This document shows positions 12,425 to 56,434 of a DNA stretch of 64,000 nucleotides, in pieces; position 1 is the stretch's first letter; every line of letters starts with the position of its first letter. Source of the DNA: an uncultured Candidatus Peribacteria bacterium. GTDB lineage: Bacteria > Patescibacteriota > Gracilibacteria > BD1-5 > UBA2023. The stretch lies in contig CAZKLD010000004.1 in assembly GCA_964553745.1 (NCBI GenBank), forward strand, positions 32,945-96,944, given 5' to 3'. The position numbers and the translations under genes were made by a program. The notes under the pieces were generated by a model. The model made no database searches. It was given only the letters and a program-made list of their open reading frames with translations, and was not told where the DNA came from.

Positions 12425-12451
12425 TTGACTTATATATATATTCACTATAAT
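12425..12451 (+). promoter_or_regulatory. candidate promoter of the S-layer gene (TTGACT ... TATAAT)
   Basis: TTGACT at 12425-12430 and TATAAT at 12446-12451. The spacer is only 15-16 nt. A direct repeat GTGAAGA x2 lies just upstream. Confidence 0.35.
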
Positions 12452-12850
12452 TTGGACGCACTGGGGGAGTGTATTTTCACTTCTTCTTAGCTCGTTAACA
12501 TATATTTTGAATTACACATTCTTGTGTATATTTGACGAGTTTTTTCCCTTCTTTTCTTTGTTTTAAATGACGAGAGGAGTGTTGCGGGTAAAGATTGGCC
12601 TCATAGAGGTCAATCTTCTACACAACCTCCTCTCGTTATGCCGACATAACGGAAGGTTAAAGCTTTGACCCTCCAAGATTTTATCTTTCTTGGAAGCGAT
12701 TTACAGGGATGGTCTCCCCGTAGATCAAAACCCAAAACAATGTTTGTTTTAAAGGCATAGCCTAAGCGCATTCATTGTTCGTTTTTTGGAATAGGAGCAA
12801 TCCTATCCTGCAAAAACAAAAATTTTTATTTCTTAACTTATAGTAATCCT
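12452..12850 (+). promoter_or_regulatory. long structured 5-prime leader of the S-layer gene
   Basis: A chain of stem-loops: ACGAGAGGAG 12570-12579 pairs with CTCCTCTCGT 12627-12636 and encloses AAGATTGGCCTC/GAGGTCAATCTT; CGTTATG/CATAACG at 12634-12651; further stems at 12651-12674, CCAAGA/TCTTGG at 12673-12693, 12698-12726, 12734-12750 and 12788-12808. No Shine-Dalgarno sequence precedes ATG 12851. Confidence 0.5.
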
Positions 12851-15800
12851 ATGAGTAATCTTTCTAAAAAAGTTACTTCTGCTATAAGTGTAGTTGCTAT
12901 AGTTGCATCTGCGGTTGGTTCTTCAATCGTTGCTGCTGCTTCTGGTTTCCTACCTTATGCTGAAGCTTTGGCTACTGCCGGTTATATTCAATCTTCATCT
13001 AATGAAGCTGGATACAGACTAGCAGATACTGCATCAAGACAAGAAGTTGCTGGTACAGCAATCAAAATGAAACTTGGTACAGGTTCTACTGCACTTCCTG
13101 CAAATTATTCTTGTAAAGGATACTTTACTGATGTTTCTGCTACTACTCCAGCTAGCTGGTCATGTAGAGCTGCTGAATTAGCAGCTGACAACGGTATCGT
13201 TTCTCAAGCAAACGCTAAATTCCGCCCTACTGATAATATTACTAGAGCTGAAGCTCTTGCAATGGTATTGAAGGCTGCTGGAATGGAAATTCCTACTGTT
13301 ACTACTTCATCATTCAATGATGTTACTATTGCTTGGCAAGTTAATGTAGCTGAAGCTGCACTTGCTAAGAAAATCATTTCTGCTAACGCAAGTTTCAGAC
13401 CAAATGATTCTGTATCAAGAGGTGAACTATTTGTATTTGCTGCTAACGCTTTAGGTCTTAGTGTTGATGATTTCAACCTTGATGACATACTAAACGGTGG
13501 TGACACTTCAACTGGTACTACTTCAACTGGTACTACTTCAACTGGTACTACTACTGAAGTTAAAGCTGGTGATCTTAACATATCTCTAAATCCTGCTTCT
13601 CCTGCTGTTGGAACTCAAGTTCCTATGTCTGGAATAATCAGATTTGCAGTTGTTGATTTCAAGGCCGCTTCTTCTGATGTAACTCTTAGTTCAGTTGAAC
13701 TTAAGAAAGCTGGTCTTTCTACAGTTTCTTCTTCTACTAAGGTATGGTTCGAAAAGAATGGTCTAAGACTATCTGGTAAAGCTTCTTTCACTTCTGAAGG
13801 TAACGCTATCGTTTCTTTCGCTCCATCTATAGTTATTAAAGCTGGTGCAACTGAATCTCTAGACCTTTACGTTCAATTGGCTGATAGTGTTGCTGGTACT
13901 GACTACCAATTCGTATCTGGAAACATCCTAAGCTCTGCTCAGAATGTTGCTGGTGCGTTCATGACTCCTGTTCTAAGGACTGCTAACTATACAGTTGCAA
14001 CATTCAATGCTGCTGCTGCTTCTTCTGGTGCAGATTACAAAGCTTCAAACGATGTTATCGAACTTGGTGCTTTCAAAATCTCTGCAACTAAGACTGGTTC
14101 AGTTACTGAAACAAGAGACGAAAAATTCCAATCAGTTACTCTATACCAATCTGGTACAGCTAACTTAACAAATCTTTCTAATATCGTTCTAGTAAGAAAC
14201 GGACAAGTTATCTCTTCTGGTGCAACTGTTGCTGGAAAAGCTCTTACTTTCGTTGTTAACGATATCATCAAAGACGGTGCTACTGCTACTTACTACATTA
14301 AAGCTAACATCAACAATGTAGAAAATCAAACTGATAGCTACCAATTCTACCTTAAGAATACATCTGATATCAGTGTAATCGAAGCTAATTCTGGTTTCCG
14401 CGCTAACGCTGATGCTACTACTGAGACTTCTAGATTCGTTGCTTCTCTTTACACTGTAAACGGAGGTGATGTTAAATTTGATAGAGACCCTTCTGTTGCT
14501 CTTTCTGCTAATTACGCTCCTGGAACTGATAATGTTGTTCTTATGCAAGGTACAATCACTGCTAAGAATGCTGTTACTCTTGAAGATCCAAGCCTAACTA
14601 TCAGCAACCTAACAGGTACTGGTAATCTTTCTAACTACTTCAATACTCTTTACCTAACTGTTGGTAATTCAGTATTCTCTGCAACTGCTGCTGGTACTGG
14701 TGGTGCTTCTATTGTTTTCAATGGAACTACTACTATATCTGGTACTGCTCAAGTTAAACTTTACGGTACACTAAAGAGCACTACTAATATGCCTGATGCT
14801 ACAATCAAATTCGGTGACTTGACTCTTGCTTCATTTACTGGAACAAATCAATACACTGCTAATCAAAACAATGTTACTTCTGCTGTAGGTTCTATTCCTG
14901 GTATCAGCGTTTCTGTTGCTAACACTTCTCTTAACGTTACTCGTAACGATGGGCTTGGTGATACTTCACTTGCTGCTGGTTCTAAATCAGTTGTACTTTA
15001 CGGAGTTCAACTTTCTTCTACAAGAGGTAATCCTGTTAACGTAACTTCTGCTAGCTTCCAATTTACTGGATCTGGTACTACTGCAACTGGTTTTGTAAAT
15101 AACGCTTACGCTACTCTATACGTAGATGGTGTTGCTGTTTCTTCTAAGACTGTTGATTCTACTAATTCAATCAAATTTGATGGAATCAGTGCTACTGTTA
15201 ATCCTTCTAAAGCTGTTAATCTAGTTGTTAAGGCTGATTTCTCTGATAACTTCCAAGGTGGAACTATCAGGACTGCTATGACTGCTATAGCTGCTGTTGA
15301 TTCTATCAGCTCTAAGGATATCGTTGTTTCTACTTTCCCAGCTGGTGCTATATTTACTGTTCAGGCTGCTAGCGCTACATTCGCTGCTTCTGACGCTAAT
15401 CCACAAGCTAGCCTATTCTTGGCAGGAAGTACTAACAATAAACTATACGCTGTTAAAGTAACTGCTGCTAACGATAATGTTAATCTAAAGACTGTTGCCC
15501 TAACAGGTACTGGTCTTGGAGCTTTCGCTAACTTCAAACTTTACGATGCTGCTGGTGCTCTAGTTGCTAACTCTTCTTCTGAAAGCGCAACTGCTGTAAC
15601 TTTTGATAACATTGACGCAACTAAATCTACTGTTGCTCAAGATAAATCAGTAAGTTACGTAGTTTCTGCTGATGCTAACACTAATACTGATGCTACTGGA
15701 ATCCAATTGGTTCTTGGAAGTGCAGTAATCCGTGGAAGCAATGGTCTAGAGATCAACGCAACTACTACTTCTATCGCTTCTAACCTTCACGCTGTTGCTC

Positions 15801-16231
15801 AAAACACTGCTGTGATCGCTAAGGCTACTAACCCAAGTAAGGAACTTACAACTAGCGCTCTAAGATTCTCTGTTGCTGCTTCTGGTAAGAACTCTGTTAC
15901 TATCTCTTCACTAAGTCTTTCTTCACTTCTTTCAGGTTACACTGGATCAACTGTAGTAAGCGTGTATAAGGATAGCATAAGCGCTTCTAACCTTGCATTT
16001 ACAGGTACACTTGGATCTGCACAAACTCTACTTCCTACTGCAAACGCTAAAAACACTGTAGATGCTGGATCAACTGCTACATATATCGTAGCTATTGAAG
16101 GCACTATCATTGATGCTACTGCTCAACAAAGTTCTTGGACTATATCTTTGAATGATGTTGTATTCGGTACTGCAATCTCTGCTAAGAACTACTACAATGT
16201 TGGACAATTCCCAATTACTGAAGTTAAATAA
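12851..16231 (+). CDS. S-layer-like surface protein: signal peptide, SLH anchoring domains, T/S/G linker, repeated beta-rich domains (1126 aa)
   Basis: The only long standard-code ORF in the window. The N-terminal signal peptide is KKVTSAISVVAIVASAVGSSIVAAASG. SLH repeats include FTDVSATTPASWSCRAAELAADNGIVSQANAKFRPTDNITRAEALAMVL and FNDVTIAWQVNVAEAALAKKIISANASFRPNDSVSRGELFVF. About 900 aa rich in A/T/S/V/N with no Cys follow. It is flanked by a structured leader and a strong terminator. Confidence 0.9.
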   Translation: MSNLSKKVTSAISVVAIVASAVGSSIVAAASGFLPYAEALATAGYIQSSSNEAGYRLADTASRQEVAGTAIKMKLGTGSTALPANYSCKGYFTDVSATTPASWSCRAAELAADNGIVSQANAKFRPTDNITRAEALAMVLKAAGMEIPTVTTSSFNDVTIAWQVNVAEAALAKKIISANASFRPNDSVSRGELFVFAANALGLSVDDFNLDDILNGGDTSTGTTSTGTTSTGTTTEVKAGDLNISLNPASPAVGTQVPMSGIIRFAVVDFKAASSDVTLSSVELKKAGLSTVSSSTKVWFEKNGLRLSGKASFTSEGNAIVSFAPSIVIKAGATESLDLYVQLADSVAGTDYQFVSGNILSSAQNVAGAFMTPVLRTANYTVATFNAAAASSGADYKASNDVIELGAFKISATKTGSVTETRDEKFQSVTLYQSGTANLTNLSNIVLVRNGQVISSGATVAGKALTFVVNDIIKDGATATYYIKANINNVENQTDSYQFYLKNTSDISVIEANSGFRANADATTETSRFVASLYTVNGGDVKFDRDPSVALSANYAPGTDNVVLMQGTITAKNAVTLEDPSLTISNLTGTGNLSNYFNTLYLTVGNSVFSATAAGTGGASIVFNGTTTISGTAQVKLYGTLKSTTNMPDATIKFGDLTLASFTGTNQYTANQNNVTSAVGSIPGISVSVANTSLNVTRNDGLGDTSLAAGSKSVVLYGVQLSSTRGNPVNVTSASFQFTGSGTTATGFVNNAYATLYVDGVAVSSKTVDSTNSIKFDGISATVNPSKAVNLVVKADFSDNFQGGTIRTAMTAIAAVDSISSKDIVVSTFPAGAIFTVQAASATFAASDANPQASLFLAGSTNNKLYAVKVTAANDNVNLKTVALTGTGLGAFANFKLYDAAGALVANSSSESATAVTFDNIDATKSTVAQDKSVSYVVSADANTNTDATGIQLVLGSAVIRGSNGLEINATTTSIASNLHAVAQNTAVIAKATNPSKELTTSALRFSVAASGKNSVTISSLSLSSLLSGYTGSTVVSVYKDSISASNLAFTGTLGSAQTLLPTANAKNTVDAGSTATYIVAIEGTIIDATAQQSSWTISLNDVVFGTAISAKNYYNVGQFPITEVK
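13505..13549 (+). repeat. 3 x 15-bp perfect tandem repeat (ACTTCAACTGGTACT) encoding (TSTGT)3 linker
   Basis: Read directly at 13505-13519, 13520-13534 and 13535-13549, between the SLH region and the body of the protein. Confidence 0.9.
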
Positions 16232-27071: not shown

Positions 27072-29804
27072 GTGAAAAAAGCATTGTTCATTTTTTTTGT
27101 AATTGTCTTGTCTTGAATTACAATAGCAGGAACTGTCAAGACATACAAGGATAATGAAACTGAATCGCATAAAGAAGAAATGAAAGAGTTCCTGTCTTCG
27201 GAGTTGGGCATTTTTTACTATGACCCAAAGAAAAAAGATTTCTCTTCAAAAACAAGAAATTCAATATTCTCGCATTACAGGTTCAGTCCCATAGATTGAG
27301 TCTATTTCACGTCCGCATGATCAAAGAAGCCAATTAGCCTTAAGAAAAACGGAAACACGACAATAATTACCATTTCGGAAGGAGAGTATGTGTTTGAGCT
27401 TAATGACATTTTTGAGAAATATGAGGTTCATGCTGAGGATTTCAACATATCACAATTGGGTAAGTGAATGTTCTATGTAAACAATGTAAAATGAAATTAC
27501 AGGATATATTCCTTCAATTCCCTATTGAGATTGGACCTGCTCTCAAAGCCCAAGACTAAAGTGACTTTCGACCTCTTTCCGTCATTGCTTTTCAAGTACA
27601 ACCCAGAATACAATAAGAATCTGATATCTCTAGAGTTTGATCCGCAAACCAAGAAGAATGTTGAAAAATCTGCAGATGTCCTGAGGATTTCCCAGATTGA
27701 TCCGATAATCTATGTTGACTCGAAAGGTAAGAAATTCTACTCTCAAGTAATGGATAATCCAGCTGAAGATAATCTTATCAAAATCGCAATATCTGACATT
27801 AACTTAAAATTCCAGAAATACTGACAGCTTCTCGATATGCTAGTCAATATGGATATCAAGGATATTCCCTGAGCCGCTCTTTCCAAAGATTATTCCTCTT
27901 TCTTCCAGAACCAGACAAAAAAAGCAATTTACCTCAAGAACAGCATCGCAAAAAACTTTGTAAGCTTCCTCAAGAACAGCTGAGATAAAAACAAGGTTAC
28001 TGAGATCGAAAGCAACATAACAGCCATCGAGGATTCTCTTTCTCAGATGCAGGAAGTCTCAGACGTGCTGTACAATGAGTGAACCGATATCATCAAGAAC
28101 TATTATTATATATCTTATTTCGGTAATATCCTCGGAAATATAGACAGCATTGATTTCAGGCAAGGATGAGTCGGCGCATGAATGAAGAGGATATTCAAAG
28201 ATAAGATTGCCGGAGAGGATTATTTCTGAGAACTTTCAGATCTATTTTTCACATATCAATTTTCTGAAGCGAATAAGGATGTCATTGATTCATGAATAGA
28301 TGTATACTTGGGAGGACTTATGGAGAACAAGGTGCTTAAGGGTTCAGACTTCCTCAACTTCTCATTCTTCCTTACCCAATATTCCCTTTCGGAAGACAGG
28401 ATTTCAAAAAGCTCACTGAATATAGTCAAATACCTTATCGATATGTCCAACAGTTTCTATCTGACCATAAGGGATTCCGATAAGGTCAAGGAGGGAGAGA
28501 AAAAATTCTCAACTCTTTCCGTCCAATTCTATAGCCTCACAAAGATCATAAAAAAACTGAATAATTCCATAATTTCCAATTTTTTCGAAAAGAAGCCGGA
28601 TAATTCTGTCCAGCTGAAAGCTGAGTATTCCCAGGAATTCTGAGACACTGTCCAGGCCACCATCTCAAAAGACATCACTCAATGACTCTCTTCTCTATAT
28701 TCCCAATGAATAAAGGATATGCAGAATAAGAAACCCGAGTTCATGAAATATCTGACTCAGCAGAAGGTCAGCAGCTCATCAACAAAGAACAATTACACAC
28801 TTCTTGAGGAACAGTACGCAAAGCTCCATTATATAAGCGAAGAAGTTCTGGCAAACTATAATTCTTGGTCAAAGAAGCAAAATCTGAAGAAAGAATTCCG
28901 GGATGCCAAGGAAGTGATATATGAGGAGTCGGTGGTCATGAATAAAGCGGAACTGCTGGCGTATCTTTCTAATTTCAATTGAACCGACGTCTCCAGCCTA
29001 AAACTGCTGAATGAGAATTCGCTCATGAAGGATTGATTCTATAACGCGAGCATAAATGTAAATAATTCCGTAGTCGAATTCAAGCTTTATCCAGAAGGCC
29101 ATAAGCTTAGCAATATATCGATAACCGATCCTAATACCTGAAATAAGAAAAGCTATCAGACATCAATCGTACTCGATGATAAGGAAGAGCTTTATAGGGA
29201 TCTCTACTCTGCCGCATCGACAGAATCAAATAAAAGAAAATATGATTTCAAGAATTTTCTGGAAAATATATTGAATCTTTGATATGAAAGCTCAGATGTG
29301 ACATGAGAAAATGACGATACCGAAATCAAGCCTGTCGAATCGAACTATATTAGCCTATTCAAGCAGAATAAGCTTATCGACTGAGACTTCACATTCATAA
29401 AAAAATTCATTTCCATACCTTTCTCCTCTATCAACGTAACTATTGTCAATGAGGAATATGTGATTACGATAAAAGGTGCAGAAAAGACATTTACCACTGA
29501 TTGAAGATCGTTCTCAATCAAACTGGATTGCTCTTATAACTTCGTATCAAAGAAATTCGAGGATATACGTTTTTATGTAATGAGAGAGAGCGGAACATGA
29601 GCTGACCCCTATGAATTATGAGGCAACGAAGTGACAGTCAGCCCATCAGTCATCTGACTAAAGGAATTTTCAACAAAACTCAATCTGGCCGAATATCTGG
29701 AAGTGCTCGTCCAGAATTACATCCAATGAGCAACTAATATGAAAGTCGACTTGAATTCTTCAAAAGTTTATATAGACTCTAAAAGCTTTCCAGTAAATGA
29801 GTAG
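27072..29804 (+). CDS. large membrane-anchored/secreted hypothetical protein, 910 aa
   Basis: GTG 27072 is the first start after an in-frame TAG. The N-terminal anchor is KKALFIFFVIVLSGITIAG. Track ORFs 27525, 28308 and 28719 are all in this frame, joined by TGA codons. Ends at TAG 29802-29804. No recognisable domain. Confidence 0.75.
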
Positions 29805-34477: not shown

Positions 34478-34846
34478 ATGGTAAATTGGAAGCAGAAAAT
34501 AAAAATAAATATATTAATGAAAGAAAAAGTTAAAGAGCTTCTGATTCAAAAACAAGATTCCAATTCTGTCGCAAGGAATATGTTGGAATACATTGAATAT
34601 TTCACTGAACAGGAGATTTCCGACATCTATATCCTTATTTCCGATAAGGAACTTGAACAGAGGAAGGAGATACTTCTCAGGAATCTTTCTGAATATGAGA
34701 ATACAATCGAAGAGATAGTCAAAATCGGCCTCAAATTCGAAAGGCTGAAGACTATAATGATGTATGAAGCAGTGAAGAAACAGAGCAAGGAATCCCTTGC
34801 AAATCTGAAATCCTCACTGAATCTGACTCCCCACACAAATAATTAA
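34478..34846 (+). CDS. hypothetical coiled-coil protein, up to 122 aa, first gene of the ORFan island
   Basis: Track ORF with no TGA. An internal ATG giving MKEKVKELL is an alternative start. K/E-rich and helical. Confidence 0.6.
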   Translation: MVNWKQKIKINILMKEKVKELLIQKQDSNSVARNMLEYIEYFTEQEISDIYILISDKELEQRKEILLRNLSEYENTIEEIVKIGLKFERLKTIMMYEAVKKQSKESLANLKSSLNLTPHTNN

Positions 34847-34857
34847 CAAAAACAAAA

Positions 34858-37800
34858 ATGGCTGAGATAAGAAATGAGATCCTAGACCTTTCTACTGATA
34901 ATGGTCTGAAAAAGCTTAATACTATCTTCGATTTTGCAAAAGCAAAACTCCAGAAGGTCGAATCGAAAATATGAGATTTTTTGAGATCCCATGGCTTCGA
35001 TAAGCATTTATCAAAGAACTATGACGGGAAATTGGACAAGTCTTCGGACACACAATCTGAGATAATCTTCAATAAGCAGATTCTCCCGCTTCTTAATGAT
35101 TTCAAAAGAAACAGACATGTTTTATCAAAGAAAGAATTAATAATCAAGTTATCCTGAATCATAGAGCAGGCCGAGCTTCAAGAGAAATTCTCACTTAGCC
35201 AATCGCAAGGCAAGGACATGTCCGCAATGCATACGGAAAGCAGAAAACAGATAGAGAATGAACTTCTGAAATGAATAGACAATGAATTCCATGCAAAGAA
35301 GCTTGATGTTGTTACTGATCAGAATTTCGAGAAATCAAAAGAGGCTGAACTGAAGTGAATGCTTCTTGCATTGAGCGCATGAACATTATCGTCGGCTCAA
35401 TTTGAAAGCAGATATTTCGCAATCATAAAAGAAACGTGAAAAATAGGCTGAATGCCGATGCAAGCTAGGTTGCTTGAGAGATTCTGAAGCATTGCAAAGC
35501 CGATGATGTCAAGCTGAGCAGCTCCACTGCTCCTTATGATTTCCAAAAAAACAAGGAAAATACTCCCATGATTGCCGCTTCTTATATGAGGCTGAATATA
35601 TGCCAGCCTTTTCTTTACCCTCAGATCAAAAGACATATCCGCATGAACCAAGGCTACAGAAGTGAGCAAGACTGTCTGAGAGACTATTCTGAATATCGCA
35701 CCGATAACAGGAACGATAATGTCCGCTAAGGATACAATACATGCTTTCCGCAGATGAGATAAGGCAGACGCTATTGCATGCTGAATCGGTACTCTGGTGA
35801 GCTGAGTTTTCGATTGATTTACCATAGTGTTGGTTGCCAGCTGAGTGGGTATCCCATGAGCCGTAGCTCTGAGTTCTGTCAAGAATGCGGTCATAAGATG
35901 AGTTGTTAAGCTCTGAGTCAAGCCATTGTCTAAAATTGTGGCAAAAGAAGCCGCGGAGAAGATTGCCGCGGAGGCTGCATCCCAGACTTGAAGACAGATA
36001 ATAAAGGAAATATGAAAATCCTCGACTGAATTCCTTGTCCAGAATTCCAAAGTCGCATGGAAATGAATGAGGCATAATACAAGAAAGATGATACTCTGAA
36101 AAAAAGAATGATGAGAATTGGTCAGCAGATGATTGGTTCATGAAACCATGGACTGAGTGAAACAGATATTCACTTTCAAACACGCGAGAGACTTGGTTAT
36201 GGGAAAGTACCATATGCGCCAGTATAAGAAAAATCCTGAAGCCCTGAAGAGTAAGAATTTCAAGAAATATAAGGAAATGGAGGAGCTGGCAAAAGAGAAA
36301 GATGCCTCTATCAGATCTCGATCGATTACCGAATCCAAAATCGCAGAGCATAATATGTCACAGAATAAAGAGCTTGAAGACTGAGTCTTGAAGCTCAATG
36401 AAAATGATTCCGAGAGTTCAGTCTCTGGTATGGTGCATGATGCTAGATATGATTCTGATATGAATAAGGATTTGAATTCGCATCTTAATGCAGAATTTAG
36501 ATCAGAAACCGATAATTTAGCTAAGGAACTCGATGCGAAGAGACACGAAAGGAAGCTTAAATTTGAATCGTACATAGCGGCAATTGAGTCAGAATGCACA
36601 GTAAAATGAACCGAGAACATAATCTCAAAACTTGATTTTGAGATAAATGGGCTTATTAAAGATTGAGTTGAAATACAAAATCTAGAATCAAGCTTCAAAC
36701 GAGCATGAGATTGGTTTAGGTGAACATTGGATAAGATTGCAAGATGAGAAAAGCTAAATAAGTGATACAGGGATCCGGAATATTATGCAAACAATCTGTA
36801 CAAGTTAAAAAGCTGATTGGAATTGAGTAGGAAATTGAAAGCTGACAGATTCGAAAAAGTTGAGAAGCTACTGGATTCTCTAGAAAGGAGATCCTACAAT
36901 AATGAGACTACCGACCACCAAAAATTCTTCTATTCAAAAGTAGAAGAAATCATAAAGAACAGACAGCTCTGAGCCGATGTGAAGAAGCTCATCCTTGAGC
37001 ATCTGACCCCGCAGCACATAAACGAATCGCTTGTGAAGAATAATGTCCTGCCCAAACTCATACAGGAAATATTGTCTAGCAATATTAGCATTACCGAAAA
37101 AGTTGATTTCCTCACATTCCTGAAAACAGAGAAAAATGTGAATAATATCTGACGAGGACAAACTCTCTATAAATTTGCTCAAGACGAGCTCAATGTCATA
37201 ATTAAAGAAATAAAAGGATTCGGTTCAGAATGAGCTTCAGATGCGGGCATATTATCTTTTCAGGAAAATTTCCGTGAATATGACAAGCTTATAAGATGAT
37301 TCGATCATGATCTGAAGATGGACTTGTCAGCTATCACTGGGGCGGTAACTGCACACTTCGGCAAGATGGAAGCTTCAGCAAAAGTTAGAACCATAGGCTT
37401 CCTGAAGAGGCAAAATATGCTTAATTATCATCTTGAGGACAAAACATTCTCTGATCAGGTTCTTGAACTTATAGTGAAGTGAATGAATGACAAGACCGAC
37501 ACAAGAAGTATCCGCTGAGCCTTGAATATGTGATCTTACCTAGAATGAACGAAGTTCAGCGAAGTCTGACAACTCTATAGCAGGACTCTTCTGAATAAGA
37601 ATGCATGAAAAGGGTTGGAATCCGAATGATTATGGTCCACGCGTGATTTTAAATCAATGATAAGAGAATCAGTCGATGATCCGAGAATATTGGCGCTTAA
37701 ACATAGGAATGAAAATGAATGAAATGAAAAATTATTCCAAAAAAATACCGATATCATGTGACCGAATTCAGGCATTAAATTATTGGAAAGCATAACAAAA

Positions 37801-40800
37801 GAGGTATTGAAATGAGATACCAGAAGCATCCTAGGCTACTTATATGAAATATCAAAAGAACCTAAGACTACATTTACGATGAGCGCGCATAATGCTGTCC
37901 TAAAGGAATTTTTCCAAGAAATCAAGAACGGAAAAAGATCTGAAGAAGTTGTTAAATTCACAAAGGAAATTTGCGTATATATAAAGGATCAGAATGAGAA
38001 AATGACGCTTCCGTTTAAAGAAATGCAAGAATGCATCTTGGAATGTCTCAAAGCAAGCAGAAAGATATCAATGGATGAAAAAGTGGCTTTCACTAAGATT
38101 CTTGAGCTCATGCCTTTAAGTGAAAAGACGTATTTATCCTTAGGTTCAACAGAAAGGGCTATATTGGCAAAAAGGATGATGGAATTAATTCCAAATGAGG
38201 GTATGGAAAAGAATCAGACTGCCATAAATATACTGGATAATCTGATGACATGAAAAATAGACGATCCTGTTGATATGATGTATAAAATAGCATGATTGAA
38301 TTATCTTCAGAGGAACAAACATGAATACGGTAAGAGATTCCAGAGCATCTTGAGCAAGAGAAAAATTTGAGAAGGCTGAGAGACTATACGCGAAATGGCA
38401 GAGAGATTGATGGAAAACAAAAGATCTCTTTTGCAAGAACTTTTCGCATTAAATCAAAATCAGATTGGTACAGGCTGAAAAGAAAAGACTCTCCTTTGAT
38501 TAGATTTGGAGATTACGAAAGATTGAGAATTCTTCCTGACTCAGAATTGATGATGAAACAGGATTGAAATCGACGTGTGATCAAAGCTCAATGCAAGCTA
38601 TGATTATATAGAATTGGCCTTGACAAAATCACCAATCATAAACTCATGAGAAAAGGAGAACATCCTTATCATATCTAAAATCCTAGAAAAATATTGAAAT
38701 ACTTGATTGCTGGAAAAATTCGAACACGCATGAAGCCATGTCAATCTCTCGAATATTTCAGAAGTGCTGAATAATTCTAAGAATCTAGAAAATATGCCAC
38801 AAGAGCTTATAATAAAATTTTTGAGGGAATTTGAGGCGAAACCTTGAGATGTGGAGCTATGAGATAGATTTGTCTCTCAGATGGTAATAATCAGGAAGTT
38901 CCTTAAAGAAAAAGGAAAAGAGGAGCATTATTGAAGAACAATCGAATACATAGAGGACCTGATGTCAAGAAAGGAAGTTCATCTGCTTGATCACCAATTA
39001 TCACTAATCGCGAATCTCTGAGTCAATAAGACGGTTCAAAAGAAAGCATATAAGGAATTCCTCAATAATAGAGTAAATACTGCAGAGGAACTAGAAGGGC
39101 TATTGACACATCCGTTATTCAAGAGGATACAGGATGATGCATGAGTTGATTTCAAGTACTCAAACCATAATATAGCAGAAATAATCTTGAAGGTCTTGAG
39201 TGCCGAAAAAATAAGCGCGGAGCAATTCAATAGATTATTCATCCTTGCTGAACTCATAAAGAATAAATCAGTTTTCTATGTTGAAACAGATTGAAGCAAG
39301 GACACTATAAAAGTGCTTAAAGAGGCTTTCTTCAAAATAGCCGATCATAAAGATCCGATGAGCCAATCCATGATTGATAAGCTGTTCGAAATCAAAGAAC
39401 TCTTAAAGGATAGAGATGTTCTTAATTACTTTGAGGCAAGGCTTAAAAATGCTCCTAGCTGATCTCTCGAAGCGACAACTCTCATGAACAGATTTTTTGA
39501 CTGAATATATAAGCATTATAAAGCTTCCTCAGAGATTGGCTTTAATGTCCATGATAAGGCCGTATTCGATAGGATTCAAAAGGCTGTGACCAAACATCTG
39601 TTGTCATTGAATATAAAATGAGGCAAGATGACATGAGAAGAATTTGAAAAGAGACTAGATTTGAAGACTAAGGAACTCCTGTATGGGAACAAAATCGAGA
39701 TAGCATGAATCGAAAACTGAAAAGTGATTTATAGGGATTCCAAGACTTGAGAAAAGCTAGAAAACCTAGAGAGCATCCAACTTTTAAGAACTGAAAAAAT
39801 CATTAAAGGCATAGAAAAACATCTTGTCATTGCCGTTCGTGCTGCAATGAATGAGAATTCCGAAGGGAAAGGCTGATCGGATTTGAATGCTGATATTCTG
39901 AAAAAACTGTCTCCGAACGTCATTGATGAACTGAATAACCTGAAAATTGAAGTCAAGGCAGATATCAAGCTTATTGAGATTGCAGAATTCCAGAGTAAAT
40001 TTATAAGAGCCTCATCTGACACTGAGAAATACAGAATCTTGAATGAATATAAAGAAAGGCTTTGAGACCATGGAGTGGAAATAAGGGCAGCCAATAAATG
40101 ATGAAGGATAAGCCTTCAGTATCTGGATTCAGATGGTGGGGCAATTGATATGACAAGGCTCGTTGGGCTTGTTGATAAGGCTACATGAAAAAATATTGAG
40201 TCCACTTCATTAGCGGGGAATATGAATATTATCGATTCCATATTGAGTTGATCTAAGGCTTGATTGTGATGGTTGAGATGAATCGTATGATGATCAAAAG
40301 AGTTATTAGACGAAAATCTTGCGTGAAAAGAAAAAATATGACATAATGTAAGCAGGCTTGCCTTCAATGAAGTGATGAGCACCAAGAAAGCAAAAATAAT
40401 CATACCTTTAGCAATAACTTTTTGACTAATGACAGCCAAACAAGCACAGGCGATGAACCAATCCGTTCTGGATGATGCAGAAATTGCAGCCCAGGATGCA
40501 CTTAAAGTGAATGCCGAATATCAGAAAGCCGTCAAGGAGGGCAATCTAGGGCTTAAGAAAGAGATTGAAGAAGAGACCATCCGCAAGATGACAATCCTCA
40601 AGGCCCAATCATTGTTCAATGACATGCAGATGCAGGTTGATAGGAAAATTGATGAGATTGTGGATAAGTCTCTTGCTAAAACTAATGATATCATAGTGAC
40701 ACCATTACAGAAGGATAAGATTAGAGAATTATTCAAAGAGGAAATGTACAAATATATGATTGAGAACAATGATACTGGAACTAGATTTGAATCACCTTAT

Positions 40801-40992
40801 GAGAATTCAAAAAAATCCTGACTTCCAGCTGAGAAGATAATATCAAATGCATTAAAATGAAATGAGTTGCTTGAGAATGAAATCAGAGATATCTTGAATA
40901 ATATAAACAGCAGAATTAGTACTCCTATTGATAATGAATGAATCAGAAGATTAAAATTCATTATATGGTCAGAATTTAATTCCTTAAAATAA
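34858..40992 (+). CDS. giant hypothetical protein, 2044 aa, with a glycine-zipper/hydrophobic module near the N-terminus
   Basis: Read line by line in frame 1: no TAA/TAG for 2044 codons in AT-rich DNA, from ATG 34858 to TAA 40990-40992. It joins track ORFs 36157, 36388, 37879, 39883 and 40429. Mostly K/E/N/L-rich helical sequence, with hydrophobic G/A/V/I stretches about 165-330 aa in and one near the C-terminus (KIIIPLAITFGLM). Confidence 0.8.
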
Positions 40993-41044
40993 TCGATACT
41001 ATCATAACAATGTGGTACGAATTTAATAAAATTAAATAAAAAAT

Positions 41045-44000
41045 ATGTTGCAACAAGAGCATATATCTCCCGAATCAGGAAGTGAGAAACTCATTAAAGA
41101 ACTTACTTTTGAGAAACTGAAAGATAGGATTATTAAGTCAAAAGATCATACTGAATTCTCCAAACACATAGATAATCTTAATGATATCCCAGAAGCAAAA
41201 GATAAACTGAAAAATATAATTAAGGATTATCTATCAAAGCTAGAATCATTTGATATAGACAATAAAGTATCAGTTACCTTGGTGCAGATATTGGCTAAGA
41301 CTTTCTGATTGCAGGTTTATGTAGATGGCCTGTATGGAAAGCAGACTCAGACAGCTATCGCAGATATCATGCAGCTCAATAAAGGTTTGGTTCCGCCCAT
41401 CATCAATTTGCCGATTATAAATGAGAAGAGACTTGCCAATTATAGGAAATGAAAAGATGAGGAAGAAGCTGTAATGAAATTAAGAAGTGAATTTGCAGAA
41501 TTCTCAAAAGATCCAAAAAAAATAGAATTATTTGAAAAAGAACTTAGGAGTTACAAAGTAGATATACAATCAGCACAGATTAAGCTAAAATGATCAGCTG
41601 CTGATATCGGTAAACCAGAATCAAGAGAGGCAACTGAAGCTCCAGAATCAATTGAATCAAGGATTGACAAGGCTGTAAAAAGAGTATTCAGATTATCAGC
41701 TGTAGAGGCCACATATAATAAGATAGAAAATAAGATATATCTCAGTGAGAATGAAAACCCAAAATATCCTGTAATCATTGATATATGAGCATTATGACTT
41801 GATGCTAGTAGCTCAAAATTCTCTCAAGAGCTTGAATTAAAATTGAAATTGCATCAGAATTCACTTGATGATTTTAAGATGCCCGAATGGGCAATCGAGA
41901 AGAGGTGAGATAGGTTCTCAGCAGCAGAAAGGATTGAAAAATGGGAAAAACAAATCCCGCTTGATATTGATACTCTAACAAAAATCCAGAAACTTAAAAA
42001 TATTATCATAAAAATCAATGAGCTTAAGGTGGAATCAAAATACAAGATTAATCTTATTGATAAATATATGTATGAATGATGAGATACAACTGGGCGAGTC
42101 CTGGAGGCTATCGCCTTAATAGAATTCAAAAATAATATCTTAGCTTCTTATCCACCTAAACAAAGGGACCTTATTAATAATAGAATCCTTGATCCTATTT
42201 TAAATGATTTCACAACCTTTATAACTAATAAGCAGCAGTTTATTGATGCAATTTTTATGATATCCTGATGAGATATAAGCAAAAAGGAACTTGATTTAAA
42301 TCATATTAATAATATTTCATATTTATTTGATATCAATGAGTCTTTATGCTGAAAAATTAGAGATCATTTTTTAGTAGATGAAAATAAAAAATGGAAATTA
42401 TCAGAAAGGCTGAATAATCTTCAATTTATCAAAGAATATTCTAAATTTGATTACAACTCGGTCAATCCCAATAAAGATCCAAAGTTATCGAAATTTTTAG
42501 CCGAAATTAAAGATTGACTAGATAAGTGTATTATAAAAGCGGATTTAGTAGAAGCAAAATTGATTTTTACAGACATCAAAAATGGCAAGTTAATAAGTTT
42601 GATAAATGATATCGATGATTCAAAACTTAAATCTATGGTTTTAAAACAGATTTGAACCTGATTGGCATGATGAAAATTTTCATATGATCATCTAAATGCT
42701 ATGATAAAAGAATCAAAAGAAATTAAACAATATTTAGATGAATCTGATTTTAAGAATATTGATAAAAATAAATCTAAAAGAATCTTGCCAAATATACTTT
42801 GTTGATTAATTGATGCACGGAAATTAGAGTCTTTTAAGCAGCTTGACTTAAGAATTACGAGTATTTTAAATTGATGAGTATCATATCCAAACATTGATTA
42901 TATAAAAGAAGAAATAGATAATATTTTTTGAGAAATTATAGATTGACGAATAGATATAGATAAGGTTTTAAATAATATTGAGACAGTTGCAAAATTTAGA
43001 GATTATAATCAGAATAAGGAAATTTATAGGTTTTTAATCAATGATTTATTTAAAAATGGCAATTTTAAAGTTTATGAAACTGAGATAAATGCAATGCAAA
43101 GAAATATAAAATCTCTTAAGGAAGATAAATCTTTAACTGTCATTTCACCCGAAAAGAAATATGAATTATTGCTTGGTTCATCCATGGGATTAGTTCAAAA
43201 AGAATGATTTGATAATATTGTTGCTAGCTTGCATGACTTGCAGAAACAATTTGATACTTGAAAAATTACAATAGAAGATGCAAAAGTTATTGTTGAATCC
43301 CTTATCTCCAACAATGATTCTATTACATGAGACGTGCAATGAGAGCTGACTTATGAATGCCCAAATCTTCCGGAGAAAAAACAGAAGGCTTTCGATGAGT
43401 CACTTAAAAATCTTAAAGATGCAAAAAAGAAATTAGAGGATCTGTCTAATAAAGATGCGAGTGATTTGACTAATGAGGACAAGGAAGATATAAGTTTCTT
43501 GAAGGATGTGATTAAGAAAATTCTTCTTGTATTTACCAAGGTATGAGCTAGAGAAATTTTTATAAAAGACAAAAAACTGTCTACACAAGATTATGAATTC
43601 ATAGCCAATGACTTCCTAGACAAAAACAGCCAGAAATATAAGATTCCAAGAGAGGCATTTGCAAATAAGGAAATCAGAGAAGAATATGAGAAGGCGATCA
43701 AGATATCTTTGTTGTCTTGAGAAATCAAAGAGAAGGATGTGAAATATATATTTTGAGAGCTTCTTAATATCAATAAAGGCACATTCAAAAAGTTCATGAC
43801 ATTGTCGACAGAAGATAAGCAAACATTGTTCCAGAATGTCATTACTGGCACATTGAGCAATCATACAAACGGCGACATGATGGGAAAGAAAAATCCTGGA
43901 CATTCATCGACACTTGAGTCAAAAGTGAATTTTATTCTGGATAATTATAATAATCTTGATAAATTCAATAATTTTCCGGAATGAGTCAATATAATAAGAT

Positions 44001-44197
44001 ATAAGGAAATAGTCCTTGCTATAAGAAGCAGTTTTCTTAGCTGATATATATCTACAACAGAAAAATTCAATGATCTTCTATCAGCATTCAATGCCAAGAA
44101 ATTAAGCAACCTTTCAAGCAATACTGGCAATTGATTTAAGGCATTTGCTGATTATTACACTGCACATATAGAGCTTAAGGATAAAGGCAAAGTATAA
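41045..44197 (+). CDS. giant hypothetical protein, 1050 aa, with an N-terminal peptidoglycan-binding-like motif
   Basis: Read line by line in frame 2: open from ATG 41045 to TAA 44195-44197, joining track ORFs 41045 and 43796. VDGLYGKQTQTAIADIMQLNKGL (41282-41400) resembles PG_binding_1. The rest is extremely K/N/D/I-rich. Confidence 0.8.
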
Positions 44198-44210
44198 ATC
44201 ATAAAACAAT

Positions 44211-44243
44211 AATCCCTGAGTTTAACTCAGGGATTTATTTGTT
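44211..44243. terminator. bidirectional terminator between convergent genes
   Basis: AATCCCTGAG-TTTAA-CTCAGGGATT followed by TATTTGTT. Confidence 0.7.
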
Positions 44244-44250
44244 GTCGATA

Positions 44251-45570
44251 TTATGCTGATTGATTCTGGGGGTCTTTTTTAGAAACCAAATGCTTTATGT
44301 TTTGGTCAAAGGCCATCATATTGAGCTGTCATTGTCATTTGTAGAAATTCGTATTATTTTTCAGATTACTGATAAAAAGGTTTTTGGTGATTATCTTTTT
44401 TGATAGATTGTGTGGATCATAAGATCAAATCACCTTTAATTTCGAGAATATTGCAAGCAATTCAATTTTTTCTGCTTGAGTGAGTCACTCTGGCTTGTCG
44501 AGATTAATGGGAATTCAATTTGTAATATCGAAATATTTATTAAGGTTCAATGAGATATCTTTCATTTCAATCGGAGTGAATGCCGTAAGTCAAGTATTCT
44601 CCATAAAATTCAAACTTGAAATCTTATTCAAAGAGAATTCTATGCTTTTAGCGTCTAGTTTAGGAAGCCTATATTCGTATCAATATCACCTAAGAATAAC
44701 TCATTTTTTATCAGGCGACAATACAAGCTCTCAATCTTCTCAAAATTTTACAGCTTCCACAAGTGAAAGCTCTCATGTTGTTTCATTAACTGAAATCTTA
44801 TCCTTAAGTCATTTCAAGATTTCCTTATCTCAATCTGACTTGGCATTTGCCAGGAATTTATCGTATACACTAGAAACTTCAGCATATTTTTCTGATTTAG
44901 CCGAAGCTGGAGCATTGCTCGCAACTGCCGGAGTTTCCTTTACATCATATTTCCTGCTAGCTAAAATAGTAGGCTGACCTCATTTTTCTTTGTCTTCTTT
45001 AGCTCGCATATCCTGAATATCGTTATAACAAGTTGTTATGTCGGTTCATTCATCGTGCTCCTTTTTTTTCCCTATTATAGCACCCTTGTACATAATAATG
45101 CTTGCTTTCTGGTTAACTATCCTTAATCAGGCATAGTATTCTTGGACCTTTTCATATTCCGCCTTCAATGATTTAGGATCAAGCCTTGAAATGAATTCGC
45201 TTTCCTTTTGTCAAAGCGGCATCTTCTTAGCCGAATAAAATTGTGCAACAGCTTCAATTATATTCTCTAATACTTTAAATGCTATAGAATTCGCTACTCA
45301 GTCATTTTTATCGAATTTCTTTCATATCACACTGAAATAATCTTCTATGTTTTCAGCCATAATCTCTCTTCACTTTTCCTTGAGGCTTTCATAATGTCAT
45401 TTTTCGACAGAACTCAATAATGCAAGCTCTTCAAGTCTGGATTCGCTTAACTGGTTCTCTTTGCTCTTTCTGAGAGATTCCAATTGCTCTCTTGTATCCA
45501 ATTGCATTTTAGATTGCAGATTTTCATTGTTGAGAGAAGGTGAATTAAGTGTTTTTGTATCTATGCTCAT
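44251..45570 (-). CDS. hypothetical protein, 439 aa
   Basis: Minus-strand frame checked line by line: no TAA/TAG between complement ATG 45568-45570 and complement TAA 44251-44253. MSIDTKTLNSPSLNNENLQSK... No recognisable domain. Confidence 0.75.
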
Positions 45571-45669
45571 AAGCAATTATTTATTTTTATTTATCCGTAT
45601 CATATTAACATATTTTTCCCTGTTTCGCAAAAATAGGCGAAGTTTTGGAATAATTTAATCCAGAAAATG

Positions 45670-45699
45670 AAAAACCTCCCCGATTCGGGGAGGTTTTTT
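45670..45699. terminator. rho-independent terminator (A-tract/T-tract flanked) downstream of trxA
   Basis: AAAA-ACCTCCCCG-ATT-CGGGGAGGT-TTTTTG. Confidence 0.75.
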
Positions 45700-45713
45700 G
45701 CTTGAAATCCTGA

Positions 45714-46061
45714 TTATTGAGCGGGATTTGTATACTTAGATATTTCAGCCTCTAGGACTGAGACTTCTTGGATTCACACGATAGGAGTCCCTACAGGCTT
45801 ACCATCCTTGAATATCATCATTGTCGGAATGCTCATTATCCTGAATCACATTGCAGTATTCGGTTCTTCGTCAACATTCATCTTCATGATCTTTGCCTTA
45901 TCTCATACTTTCTCAGCGAGCTCATCAAGCCTTGGGATCATGACTTGGCATGGTCCGCACCATACTGCCCAGAAATCGACTAAGGTAACTCATTTTGCTA
46001 TATCTTGTGCGAAAGTCGCATCGGTAGCATGTAAAACTTTTGTAGTTCAATCTTTTGACAT
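45714..46061 (-). CDS. trxA: thioredoxin
   Basis: LVDFWAVWCGPCQVMIP (WCGPC active site), FRIMSIPTMMIFKDGKP. 115 aa. Confidence 0.93.
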
Positions 46062-46114
46062 AATATTATAGTTTAATGATTAAATTATCAGCTGATTAAG
46101 TTTAACGGATAGGA

Positions 46115-46154
46115 GAAAAAATACAAATCAATTTACCTACCAATCGGTAGGTAA
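46115..46154 (-). terminator. hairpin plus T-tract downstream of the methylthiotransferase gene
   Basis: TTACCTACC-AATC-GGTAGGTAA at 46133-46154. On the minus strand it is followed by ATTGATTTGTATTTTTT. Confidence 0.55.
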
Positions 46155-46193
46155 GATAATCTTTTTCCATATAAAGTCAAGTTGATTTGTAAT

Positions 46194-55114: not shown

Positions 55115-56434
55115 ATGCATAAACAGAAAAATACATTCCGACCTAGGAATATCAGAGCCTTCACCCTGGTGGAGCTCATAGTTGTTATCGTGATACTTGC
55201 CATACTATCGACAATCGCATTCATCTCTTTTTCTTCACAATCAAGCAGTGCAAGAGACGGGAAAAGATTGGCTGACATAAGCAATATCGTCAGTTGAATA
55301 TGAATGTTCCAGGCTTTATCCGGTAAACTGCCGATTCCCGAAAATAAGATTTCTATCACGGCCTCTTGAAATGTACTGGCTTATCAATGATATGCCAGCA
55401 AAAACATCCTTAATATGATAAAGCTTTCTGATTGATGAGCTGACCCTTTGGATGATTCTGCCTATACTTATTCCACCGATCCGAGCCAGAGCAGATTCCA
55501 GATAATATGATTTTTAGAGAGTTCAAACAATCCGGCATTAAGCCTTTTTCCTGCTTTCCCTATAAATGCAAGCGCTGATCCTTCGTCCTATTCGGGAAGA
55601 TATATTTATGCCAAATGAGATAGGATGACAGCATTGTTTGCAAGCTGAACAATGATTCCAGTTCAATCGCAATACGAAGCTTCTAGTTTTACGGGTGTTG
55701 ATGTATTGGCTTCAAATCAAGAATTAAGCGCATTGGTCGGTGACAATAAGGTGGTCAGTTGAACTTGAGTCGTTCTTAAGTCGATCATATGATGAATGTG
55801 ACTATTATGATATTGGAACTTCGATGAATGATCCTGAACAAAATCAAGCGATTACAGCGGCAATTGAAACAATGGTACGCTGACTTGATCAGTCCTGCCG
55901 ATCTGGACTTGATGAGTATTGTGAAAATCCCTATACTTCAATAACAGCCTTACGCAGACCTGATACTTTGACGTCGGGCCAAGCATGTCTCTTTCACCAC
56001 AATATCTCGATACGAATGTCTGGATGAAATCGGATTGAACTAATCCGAATCTATTGCCTACGACCAGACTATTAAGAAATAGGCTGTACGGATACTCTAT
56101 CGGTTACTCTTGATGAATAGTCACATGCAGTTGGACTTATTGAGTATCATTGTCGGCATCTGCCAGTCATGTCGCTGAGATAAAGGATGATCAGTGGCAT
56201 AACATCCATTGCAGCTATTCTCAAAACAGGCAAGCCATTTATGTAGATTGAATCAAGATAGTCGAATACAATAAACCAGTGCAGCCGATATATTACGTCT
56301 GAAATTATTTCTGAATTTGAAAAGACGCGAATTGATCCTGAGGATATTATTACTGATCGATAGATGAGGTCAGGATTTATAATCGGGTGCTGTCGGATTC
56401 TGAAGTGAGTCTTTTATACAAGATAGCGAAATAG
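55115..56434 (+). CDS. type IV pilin-like protein fused to a C-terminal LamG/concanavalin-A-like lectin domain, 439 aa
   Basis: Frame checked line by line. The prepilin signal is NIRA|FTLVELIVVIVILAILSTIAFISF. The C-terminal half has LLGYWNFDEGSGTKSSDYSGNGNNGTL...GKSLYFN...WHNIHCSY...IYVDG...IDEVRIYNRVLSDSEV, typical of Laminin_G_3 domains. Confidence 0.85.

Follow-up and report, generated by a model that had tools for sequence, protein, structure and literature searches.

Described Giant Proteins and the Locus Studied

Conserved hypothetical giant proteins are common in the genomes of candidate phyla radiation (CPR) bacteria. The present work concerns a set of such proteins encoded between positions 34478 and 45570 of a 64,000-nucleotide (nt) stretch of DNA from an uncultured Candidatus Peribacteria bacterium (contig CAZKLD010000004.1). 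This whole stretch is called the window throughout, and the four genes of the region studied are named A, B, C and D. Our analysis revealed that genes A, B and C, together with the convergent gene D, constitute a conserved chromosomal module of one TGA-recoded, Gracilibacteria-type CPR lineage, and that protein B founds a family of giant, mostly helical, membrane-anchored proteins not described before. Both the B family and the gene module are new, in the sense that their members are deposited as hypothetical proteins only and are not recognised by family libraries.

Among described proteins, the polar hubs FimV and HubP possess a very large scaffold in the cytoplasm, together with one transmembrane helix and a domain that binds peptidoglycan; the N-terminal signal/LysM part of FimV lies outside, next to a single transmembrane helix. 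The principle that B is proposed to share with them is that of a giant, non-enzymatic, membrane-anchored and mostly cytoplasmic scaffold, to which a small external part and a peptidoglycan-binding module provide the link to the wall. However, no sequence or fold similarity between them was detected, and B possesses an N-proximal multi-helix module as well as a C-terminal anchor. Moreover, the peptidoglycan-binding-like motif of the present module resides on a separate protein, C, and the relationship is one of analogy rather than of membership. A second point of reference is provided by HMW2, Gli349 and Gli521 of the Mollicutes, giant cytoskeletal or gliding proteins that serve a structural role in an organelle of attachment or motility. 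The likeness to the present module consists in very large proteins without recognisable enzymatic domains, encoded in lineage-specific operons of AT-rich, TGA-recoded, host-dependent bacteria. The Mollicute giants are, however, soluble coiled coils or surface-exposed legs, TGA stands for Trp in Mollicutes and hence reflects a different code change, no homology was found, and an ATPase partner is absent here.

Giant proteins have also been described in a related recoded CPR lineage. Vampirococcus lugosii (Absconditabacteria) encodes predicted membrane proteins of 1392-4163 aa, for which a role in host recognition has been proposed, and most of them carry WD40, PKD, integrin, fibronectin, DUF11 or saposin domains (PMC8080830). 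In contrast, proteins B, C and D lack such domains and exhibit a cytoplasm-like composition.

Genetic Code and Reality of the Reading Frames

Under the bacterial code (table 11), the frames of the region fall into fragments only. When TGA was treated as a sense codon, four open reading frames (ORFs) were recovered at precisely the coordinates reported in a preliminary description of this DNA (Table 1), including the reported gaps of 11 nt between A and B and 52 nt between B and C; C and D are separated by a 53-nt spacer. When B and C were aligned with their orthologues codon by codon, columns with TGA were found opposite TGA in 430 cases, opposite a GGN codon for Gly in 99 and opposite a Trp codon in 2. 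TGA is therefore read as Gly (code 25) and not as in code 4. The share of TGA among Gly codons amounts to 65-88% in B, C and D and to 45-81% in neighbouring genes, a similarity indicating that the genes are native to the recoded genome. Gene A contains a single Gly codon.

Once TGA is read as Gly, the four long genes are real coding regions. Given the base composition of the window, the probability of encountering no TAA or TAG is 10^-47.7 over 2044 codons and 10^-24.5 over 1050 codons. The preliminary description had argued for coding from the uninterrupted giant frames; these figures, the alignment of TGA with Gly codons and the presence of full-length collinear orthologues in independent assemblies all uphold that view. 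Its remarks on composition hold as well, as the four products are rich in K, E, L, I and N, and the second giant gene, C, is more AT-rich than its flanks, having a guanine-cytosine (GC) content of 0.300, below that of every neighbour (0.34-0.415). The proposed bidirectional terminator shared by C and D was located as a hairpin with an 11-bp stem, including 5 G-C pairs, and T-runs on either strand, which makes it terminator-like in both directions.

Table 1. Genes and sequence features of the A-B-C-D module, with a related gene from another contig. Coordinates refer to the window unless a contig is named.
Feature	Coordinates	Strand	Product or residues	Remarks
Gene A	34478..34846	+	122 aa	0 in-frame TGA; ORF with TGA as sense codon
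Gene B	34858..40992	+	2044 aa	97 in-frame TGA; ORF with TGA as sense codon
N-terminal helical bundle	34885..35217	+	B residues 10-120	NYDG motif at residues 54-57
Membrane module	35503..35901	+	B residues 216-348	Family-defining
Long K/E-rich middle	35908..40383	+	B residues 351-1842	Mostly alpha-helical; probably cytoplasmic
Internal segment resembling a Sec signal peptide or signal anchor	40378..40452	+	B residues 1841-1865	
C-terminal helical domain	40453..40989	+	B residues 1866-2044 (~180 residues)	Motifs NPEY and EETIR; predicted extracytoplasmic
Gene C	41045..44197	+	1050 aa	31 in-frame TGA; ORF with TGA as sense codon
Peptidoglycan-binding-like motif	41267..41389	+	C residues 75-115	VSVTLVQILAKTFGLQVYVDGLYGKQTQTAIADIMQLNKGL; most conserved stretch of C
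Two-way hairpin resembling an intrinsic terminator	44211-44235	both		Between the stop codons of C and D
Gene D	44251..45570	-	439 aa	22 in-frame TGA; convergent with C
Conserved C-terminal domain of D	44254-44730	-	D residues ~281-439	
Gene for P0014	L009 10001-11095		364 aa	APITGT/..S..D.. half of the B membrane module

Conservation of the Gene Module

A word-indexed search of 5.8 billion proteins retrieved two orthologues of B, which are 50% and 54% identical to it (BLASTP). Both of their contigs carry a small gene, a giant gene, a gene for ~1050-1090 aa and a convergent gene for ~440-455 aa. In addition, 1.84 billion representative proteins were searched exhaustively by HMMER, the query being the N-terminal 1100 residues of B. 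Only 10 matches were obtained, of which three were large (1598-1803 aa) and the others fragments, as is to be expected of recoded genes called with the standard code. The loci compared below are L001 (Candidatus Gracilibacteria, GCA_028689205.1), L002/L003 (GCA_964618565.1 and SRR446575), L006, L007, L008 (Logan assembly SRR22387871), L009 (Logan assembly SRR25046533) and L010. Pairwise identities among the window, L001 and L002 range from 62 to 75% for A, 51 to 61% for B, 38 to 74% for C and 34 to 74% for D.

The order A-B-C with convergent D is kept in L001, in L002/L003 and in the distant L008, which has a GC content of 50%. L008 is likewise TGA-recoded; when it was read with code 25, the fragments of B fused into a homologue of 1908 aa, and positions 2056-12567 were found to hold A', B' (1908 aa), C' (966 aa; hidden Markov model (HMM) E 7.5e-57), a hairpin comparable to that of the window and convergent D' (HMM E 5e-31). 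The match of A' is weak (hhalign E 3e-4). A gene for a methyl-accepting chemotaxis protein lies upstream of the module in L008. L006, L007 and L010 share the A-B pair as well, a homologue of A immediately preceding that of B (A-family HMM, E 1e-7 to 1e-10); an A-type gene is thus found directly upstream of B in the window, L001, L002, L006, L007 and L010 at E-values of 1e-7 to 1e-63. Since the order is shared across genomes of 30-50% GC, the four-gene arrangement is old and conserved, with A-B as its universal core.

The synteny comparison proposed in the preliminary description thus found the A-B-C-D order recurring in L001, L002/L003 and L008, while two other points of that description have to be abandoned. 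The genes are not ORFans, because conserved homologues exist in other genomes, nor do they form an island, given that their use of TGA for Gly resembles that of their neighbours and their housekeeping flanks are partly syntenic with L002. Upstream of the module the window encodes an 874-aa protein, a Wzy-type ligase, a GT4 glycosyltransferase, Era and a methyltransferase, and downstream a radical-SAM enzyme and a TPR protein; flanking genes differ between genomes. Identity between the window and L002 is 61% for B and 74% for C and D, as compared with 88% for the GT4 glycosyltransferase and 94% for Era. In L001 (3643-8889) and L006 (195-7211), genes for alpha-2-macroglobulin-type proteins with MG2/A2M/bMG10 domains (1748 and 2338 aa, respectively) and a pilin-like N_methyl gene are located a few genes upstream of the module, an association that is absent from the window and hence not constant.

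Public annotation hides the B family by translating TGA as Trp or by fragmenting the genes. The NCBI entries ACD_2C00130G0014 (B) and ACD_2C00130G0015 (C), assigned to 'uncultured bacterium (gcode 4)', carry Trp at TGA and differ from the code-25 translation solely at the TGA positions. In GCA_964618565.1 (L002), the gene caller cut B to 1600 aa, the true ORF extending over 8642-14803, and called a spurious antisense ORF of 254 aa, while in the Logan assemblies the B homologue of L008 is split into at least eight fragments. The small number of family members among the 1.84 billion representative proteins is in part explained by such mistranslation and fragmentation. A scan of the GTDB representative genomes gave, among the matches listed, two already known loci only. 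A scan of the JGI metagenomes gave no match, probably because its patterns contained Gly codons that are TGA here.

Half of the B membrane module was also encountered on its own in the 364-aa protein P0014 of L009 (E 3e-9, and 2e-35 with the family HMM). The L009 contig uses the standard code, has a GC content of 49% and carries genes for the primase PriS/PriL and for deoxyhypusine synthase, which makes it probably archaeal. The gene for P0014 is followed on the same strand by genes for unknown proteins of 186, 216, 836 and 1342 aa, and this locus may be a counterpart of the module outside CPR.

Anatomy of Protein B

Conservation of B peaks at residues 1-500 and 1200-1650. AlphaFold2 models were obtained for residues 1-560 and 1150-2052 of the B orthologue P0002, with a mean predicted local distance difference test (pLDDT) of 51 and 55, respectively, and a predicted TM-score (pTM) of ~0.3. 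The only confident part of the 1-560 model is the N-terminal bundle (pLDDT 73-89), with helices at residues 14-44, 66-85 and 91-120. The motif N/R-Y-D-G is found in every B homologue and sits in the loop between helices 1 and 2. A reading of this NYDG hairpin as a WXG/LXG element, with A as a type VII partner, was considered and rejected, as nothing was found in its support: no WXG100 or LXG Pfam match exists in A or B, and no FtsK/EssC-like gene lies within +/-10 kb of any locus.

The membrane module comprises the short hydrophobic segment Ia, transmembrane helix Ib (residues 235-255), the APITGT segment II (277-291), helix IIIa (304-328) with Ser315 and Asp319, the turn GVGIPG and the amphipathic helix IIIb. 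The very hydrophobic helix between Ia and APITGT reads ILPGLPLLIGGGIYASLFFTL, and the Kyte-Doolittle peaks of the module reach 1.74 and 1.99. Residues 200-250 represent the best conserved part of B, with 82% of positions invariant among three orthologues, and in an alignment of eight sequences Pro282, Ile283, Ser315, Asp319 and Ala335 are invariant. The module follows the pattern ..SG..P..[KR]..P.LP..IG.G.Y.. / APITGT / ..S..FD..T.V..A.GVG.P.A.., and its HMM recognises B of the window at E 1.9e-88 and seven other sequences, P0014 included, at E 1e-35 to 1e-87. The glycine-rich membrane module that had been noticed at the outset therefore stands, and has proved to be the most conserved part of the family. 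Its strongly hydrophobic helices, its top rank in conservation and its invariant polar residues support the conclusion that B, very probably, is integral to a membrane of the cell that produces it.

Beyond the module, the middle of B contains a conserved block at approximately residues 1200-1650 (nt 38455-39807). The AlphaFold secondary structure of the middle, modelled at low confidence, consists almost entirely of helices with a few hairpins. Near the C-terminus, the internal segment STKKAK-IIIPLAITFGLM-TAKQAQA displays the tripartite build (n-, h- and c-region) of Sec signal peptides and ends in an A-x-A motif at Ala1865. All six homologues with a complete C-terminus exhibit a basic N-flank, 12-14 hydrophobic residues and A-x-A in the same columns, the variants of the latter being AQA, AMA, AQA, AQA, AEA and AQA. 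In the same six sequences the A-x-A helix is followed by a domain with the NPEY and EETIR motifs. Several helices of this domain were modelled at pLDDT 76-84 in P0002, and it is recognised in the L008 homologue by the B-family HMM at E 4e-28. No internal repeats and no paralogy among B, C and D were detected by blastp, and none of the catalytic motifs looked for, such as HExxH, Walker A, GxSxG and CxxC, proved to be conserved.

Proteins A, C and D

Protein A is small and helical. All of its orthologues (62-75% identity) begin at the position of Met14, so that the true start of A is probably the ATG at 34517, which gives a protein of 109 aa. No family match was found for A in Pfam, NCBIfam, PHROGs or PADLOC. 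A similarity of A to FtsA (window 34577-34720, residues 21-68 of the 109-aa form; NCBIfam E 0.039) was judged to be due to chance, as was that of the N-terminus of C to FtsZ (window 41096-41299, residues 18-85; PDB E 0.3-0.45). Both chance-level similarities point to cell division.

Protein C is helical and carries neither a signal peptide nor a transmembrane segment. Its orthologues are found in L001 (38% identity), L002 (74%) and L008, and the four family libraries just mentioned, as well as sequence and profile searches of the PDB, gave no match. The preliminary description had reported a peptidoglycan-binding-like motif in this protein, a claim that is supported at a sub-threshold level. 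The motif recurs in three of the four orthologues, with scores for PF09374 (PG_binding_3) that remain below threshold, namely 13.5-18.3 bits against a cut-off of 24.6 (E 0.0019-0.087), over only the first 30 of the 76 profile positions (3-32); the L008 orthologue obtains no score. The top PDB profile match of this segment is the peptidoglycan-binding region of endolysin 7rum (E 0.16). The signature DG.[FY]G..T..A, following an L..L...G helix, is present in the window, L001 and L002, while L008 keeps VDGLFG without T..A. In their pattern L..LA..FG......DG.YG..T..A.., residues 75-115 of C resemble the three-helix domains of the PGBD clan (PG_binding_1/3, e.g., in endolysin 7rum), but the match is sub-threshold and C has no signal peptide, transmembrane segment or hydrolase domain.

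Protein D has orthologues in the same convergent position in L001 (34% identity), L002 (74%) and L008. Searches of Pfam, NCBIfam, PHROGs, PADLOC and the PDB yielded no family or structural match for it.

Searches for Known Relatives

Pfam, NCBIfam, PHROGs and PADLOC yielded no match above threshold, whether queried with proteins A-D, with segments of them, with orthologues or with the homologues of 50% GC, which are neutral in composition, and with PHROGs and PADLOC there was no match for the four proteins even at E<=0.1. Sequence and profile searches of the PDB with C, the B family, the C family, the peptidoglycan-binding-like segment, the membrane module and the D family returned nothing significant, the best results being endolysin 7rum (E 0.16), FtsZ (E 0.3-0.45) and carnocyclin (E 2.2). 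Comparison of the AlphaFold2 models by Foldseek with the PDB and BFVD gave generic helical-repeat or alpha-solenoid matches only (E >= 0.003, TM-score ~0.1). No match was obtained by tblastn against 50,697 phage and 72,556 plasmid records, nor in a scan of IMG/VR viral contigs, and no description of the B family was found in the literature. The earlier impression that none of the four products contains a recognisable enzymatic or described domain is therefore confirmed across these libraries. The same holds, at the family level, for the statement that they have no described homologue, the Foldseek comparison having added generic weak matches only.

Membrane Topology and Location

The location of the four proteins was assessed by hydropathy, the positive-inside rule and composition, all of which are heuristics. 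According to hydropathy, none of the proteins A-D carries an N-terminal signal peptide. Proteins A, C and D have no hydrophobic segment anywhere, while B has five; its first ~160 residues are free of them, and a weak one begins at ~167. The five-residue loop between Ia and Ib of B carries a charge of +2 to +4 and no acidic residue in all seven homologues, each of which also has a net positive charge in the stretch following helix IIIb. The C-terminal helix is flanked by net positive charge on its N-terminal side and by net negative charge on its C-terminal side in the five homologues scored, which did not include L008_B. The charge bias thus agrees at both anchors of B and suggests that the N-terminus and the ~1500-residue middle are cytoplasmic and the last ~180 residues outside.

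Composition points in the same direction. The combined fraction of lysine and glutamate is 0.20-0.27 in A-D and in the middle of B (0.214 in the latter), 0.16-0.20 in the cytoplasmic proteins UvrA, Era, Der and MnmA, and 0.07-0.10 in three exported proteins of the window, i.e., the S-layer protein with an SLH domain, a pilin-like lectin protein and an M23-SLH peptidase. The proteins under study resemble the cytoplasmic and not the exported proteins of the window, in agreement with a cytoplasmic location of A, C, D and the middle of B. As judged from these sequence properties, most of B probably lies inside the cell and not on its surface. The suggestion of the preliminary description that the locus encodes a cell-surface or host-attachment apparatus is weakened by the lack of signal peptides, the cytoplasm-like lysine and glutamate content and the charge bias at the anchors.

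Favoured Explanation

The explanation we favour, tentatively and with less than even confidence, is that B is a membrane-anchored, mainly cytoplasmic helical scaffold that links the cytoplasm to the wall, with A, C and D as partners, and that it is neither an enzyme nor a secreted fibre. B would reside in the cytoplasmic membrane of the organism itself, anchored at either end, with its N-terminus and the ~1500-residue helical middle facing the cytoplasm. Short loops and the last ~180 residues would lie outside, the latter exported via the internal signal-like helix, and the C-terminal domain might possibly be cleaved off after A-x-A. Protein A would act as a cytoplasmic partner or chaperone of B, and C and D as soluble partners docking on the helical scaffold, which could organise, for example, a host-contact site, pili or division. 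The scaffold idea is supported by the lack of conserved catalytic motifs, by models that are almost wholly helical and by weak fold matches to alpha-solenoid scaffolds.

Several observations weigh against this explanation. B is lysine-rich throughout, which weakens any topology derived from charge, and the models are too poor for a fold to be assigned, which weakens the notion of a helical scaffold. No significant homology was found in the searches described above to support any function of A-D. The peptidoglycan-binding-like motif would better suit an extracytoplasmic site, yet C has no export signal. Furthermore, only A-B is universal: L006, L007 and L010 lack D, and the gene that comes after B in them (584 or 623 aa) bears no relation to C. 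For L006 and L007, hhalign related neither the 584-aa nor the 623-aa protein to C or D. Finally, the module evolves faster than its housekeeping neighbours, which would also fit a role in host interaction.

Alternative Explanations

A more far-reaching proposal, which we consider possible but doubtful, is that A-B-C-D form an undescribed envelope-spanning apparatus unique to TGA-recoded CPR bacteria, in which the polar Asp/Ser site in the membrane would serve as a pore or energy-coupling site and C would tie the apparatus to peptidoglycan. B would be threaded into the membrane at either end, and its conserved internal signal peptide, possibly cleaved, would bring only the last ~180 residues outside. 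Such an apparatus may be situated, for example, at the host-contact zone, and a related half-module is present in the probably archaeal contig L009.

It is unlikely, in our opinion, that B, with or without C and D, is a giant surface structure attaching the episymbiont to its host, with the N-terminal module as anchor and the helical part directed outward. Giant membrane proteins have been proposed to function in host attachment in the related predator Vampirococcus (PMC8080830), and a surface role would accord with the membrane anchoring of B, the faster evolution of the module compared with its housekeeping neighbours and the peptidoglycan-binding-like motif in C. The middle of B would even lie outside if the crossings of the N-terminal module were odd in number, which hydropathy alone cannot settle. 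However, all four proteins lack a signal peptide, and their composition is cytoplasm-like and differs from that of the three genuine wall or surface proteins of the window. The segment after IIIb (seven homologues) and the N-flank of the C-terminal helix (five homologues) are net positive, and this helix resembles an N-in/C-out signal sequence, which puts the middle inside. Moreover, no integrin, fibronectin, PKD, DUF11 or WD40 domains appeared in the Pfam scans, in which the window proteins and six homologues were also found to contain no Big or lectin domains and no FN3.

Less likely again is the idea that B is a pore-forming toxin or translocator that is released and inserts its glycine-rich helices into the host membrane, with A as its chaperone and C and D co-delivered, as in chaperone-translocator operons. 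Gracilibacteria are thought to depend on hosts (PMC11452946), a small helical protein is always encoded immediately upstream of B, and the absence of signal peptides is shared by many proteins secreted independently of Sec. In addition, a single outside family recurs among the similarities of the membrane module, namely the pore-forming N-terminal hydrophobic domain of RTX toxins (PF02382), matched at overlapping profile positions 67-152 with E 0.0018 for B of the window and 0.052 for the 50%-GC homologue L008_B; two of the eight module sequences score at E<=1. This likeness concerns the Gly/Ala/Val-rich helices IIIa and IIIb, and no match passes the gathering score of 26.8, the values being 18.4 bits at most (window) and 13.6 bits for L008_B. 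Neither B nor its homologues contain GGxGxD nonapeptide repeats, as judged by the lack of any HemolysinCabind-type Pfam match, and the B module differs further in being placed at residues 216-348 of a 2044-aa protein with a C-terminal signal-like anchor. We believe that the resemblance to RTX proteins is probably one of composition and architecture and not of descent. No acyltransferase or type I secretion genes lie within +/-10 kb, and no secretion ATPase adjoins the module in the seven loci. The conserved internal A-x-A helix fits Sec-dependent insertion into the producer's own membrane, and both the five hydrophobic segments, very hydrophobic helices among them, and the intramembrane polar residues strictly conserved across lineages of 22-50% GC are more typical of a resident membrane protein.

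We give still lower credence to a third alternative, according to which the B module is a channel, or else an ion-driven or export conduit, with Asp319, Ser315 and APITGT as its active site and the giant cytoplasmic part as a regulatory element. One possible use would be the export of C and D, which lack signals, to the wall; C does combine a peptidoglycan-binding-like motif with the absence of an export signal. The invariant Asp and Ser in a hydrophobic helix and the Pro-Ile in a segment resembling a re-entrant loop, present in all eight sequences, would suit a channel, as would the occurrence of the half-module as a stand-alone 364-aa protein in L009. On the other hand, Pfam, NCBIfam and the PDB revealed no similarity of the module to transporters, channels, holins or stators, the 3-4 helices per chain would require an oligomerisation that nothing supports, and the composition of C and D is of the cytoplasmic type.

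Phage tape-measure proteins are likewise long and helical, and can hold glycine-zipper hydrophobic segments as well as wall-binding or wall-lytic modules. Nevertheless, it is very improbable that a phage or another mobile element has left the region behind as a remnant encoding tape-measure-like, internal virion or conjugation proteins or a defence system. Tape-measure proteins do occur among the weak BFVD fold matches (E 0.03-0.2), with Foldseek probabilities of <=0.15 and TM-scores of <=0.11 on a low-confidence model. There was no PHROGs or PADLOC match, B had none in Pfam either, and neither the tblastn search of phage and plasmid records nor the IMG/VR scan yielded one. No phage genes were identified in the window, L001, L002, L006, L007, L008 or L010, no integrase was found in these seven loci, and their Pfam results contain no VirB4/VirD4, relaxase or VirB6-like families; codon usage is native.

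That the long frames are an artefact, either assembly chimeras or non-coding DNA free of TAA and TAG by chance, can practically be dismissed: the frames are broken under the standard code and stem from a metagenome assembly, but the chance odds are about 10^-48 and 10^-25, conservation is domain-wise and at the protein level with TGA codons opposite Gly codons, and collinear full-length orthologues in GCA_028689205.1, GCA_964618565.1, SRR446575 and SRR22387871, which derive from different samples, refute a chimera.

Other Features of the Window

Upstream of the module, positions 12851-16231 (+) encode a 1126-aa protein rich in A, S, T and G. A signal peptide at its N-terminus and an SLH domain (PF00395, E 3.6e-12) mark it as a protein of the S-layer type. 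This gene contains no TGA among its 85 Gly codons, as compared with 45-88% in the other tabulated genes of the window; possible explanations are that a highly expressed gene avoids the recoded codon and that the gene was acquired recently. Among the exported proteins used as composition references are also the M23 peptidase with SLH domains (10005-11159, +) and a protein with an N_methyl prepilin leader and a Laminin_G_3 domain (55115-56434, +). The 874-aa protein upstream of the Wzy and GT4 genes (27180-29804, +) has no Pfam match, and is found in the same position in L002 with 72% identity; it thus adds to the large proteins of the lineage that are uncharacterised. Between D and the radical-SAM gene, ~620 nt without a convincing gene (45571-46193) contain two strong terminator-like hairpins at 45670-45698 and 46132-46155. 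Neither an Rfam nor a tRNA scan gave a match in the window.

Biological Meaning

Little has been learned so far of envelope construction and host contact in the uncultivated, host-dependent, recoded Gracilibacteria and their relatives. An anonymous stretch of 11 kb has now become a defined module, characterised by the invariant residues of a membrane module, an internal A-x-A helix, an obligatory small partner gene and a partner protein with a peptidoglycan-binding-like motif. If A-D are merely a lineage-specific set of structural proteins, they belong to ordinary 'conserved hypothetical' biology. Should the module encode a scaffold of the envelope or a machine for host contact, bacterial cell biology would gain a new kind of component, and the lineage a marker.

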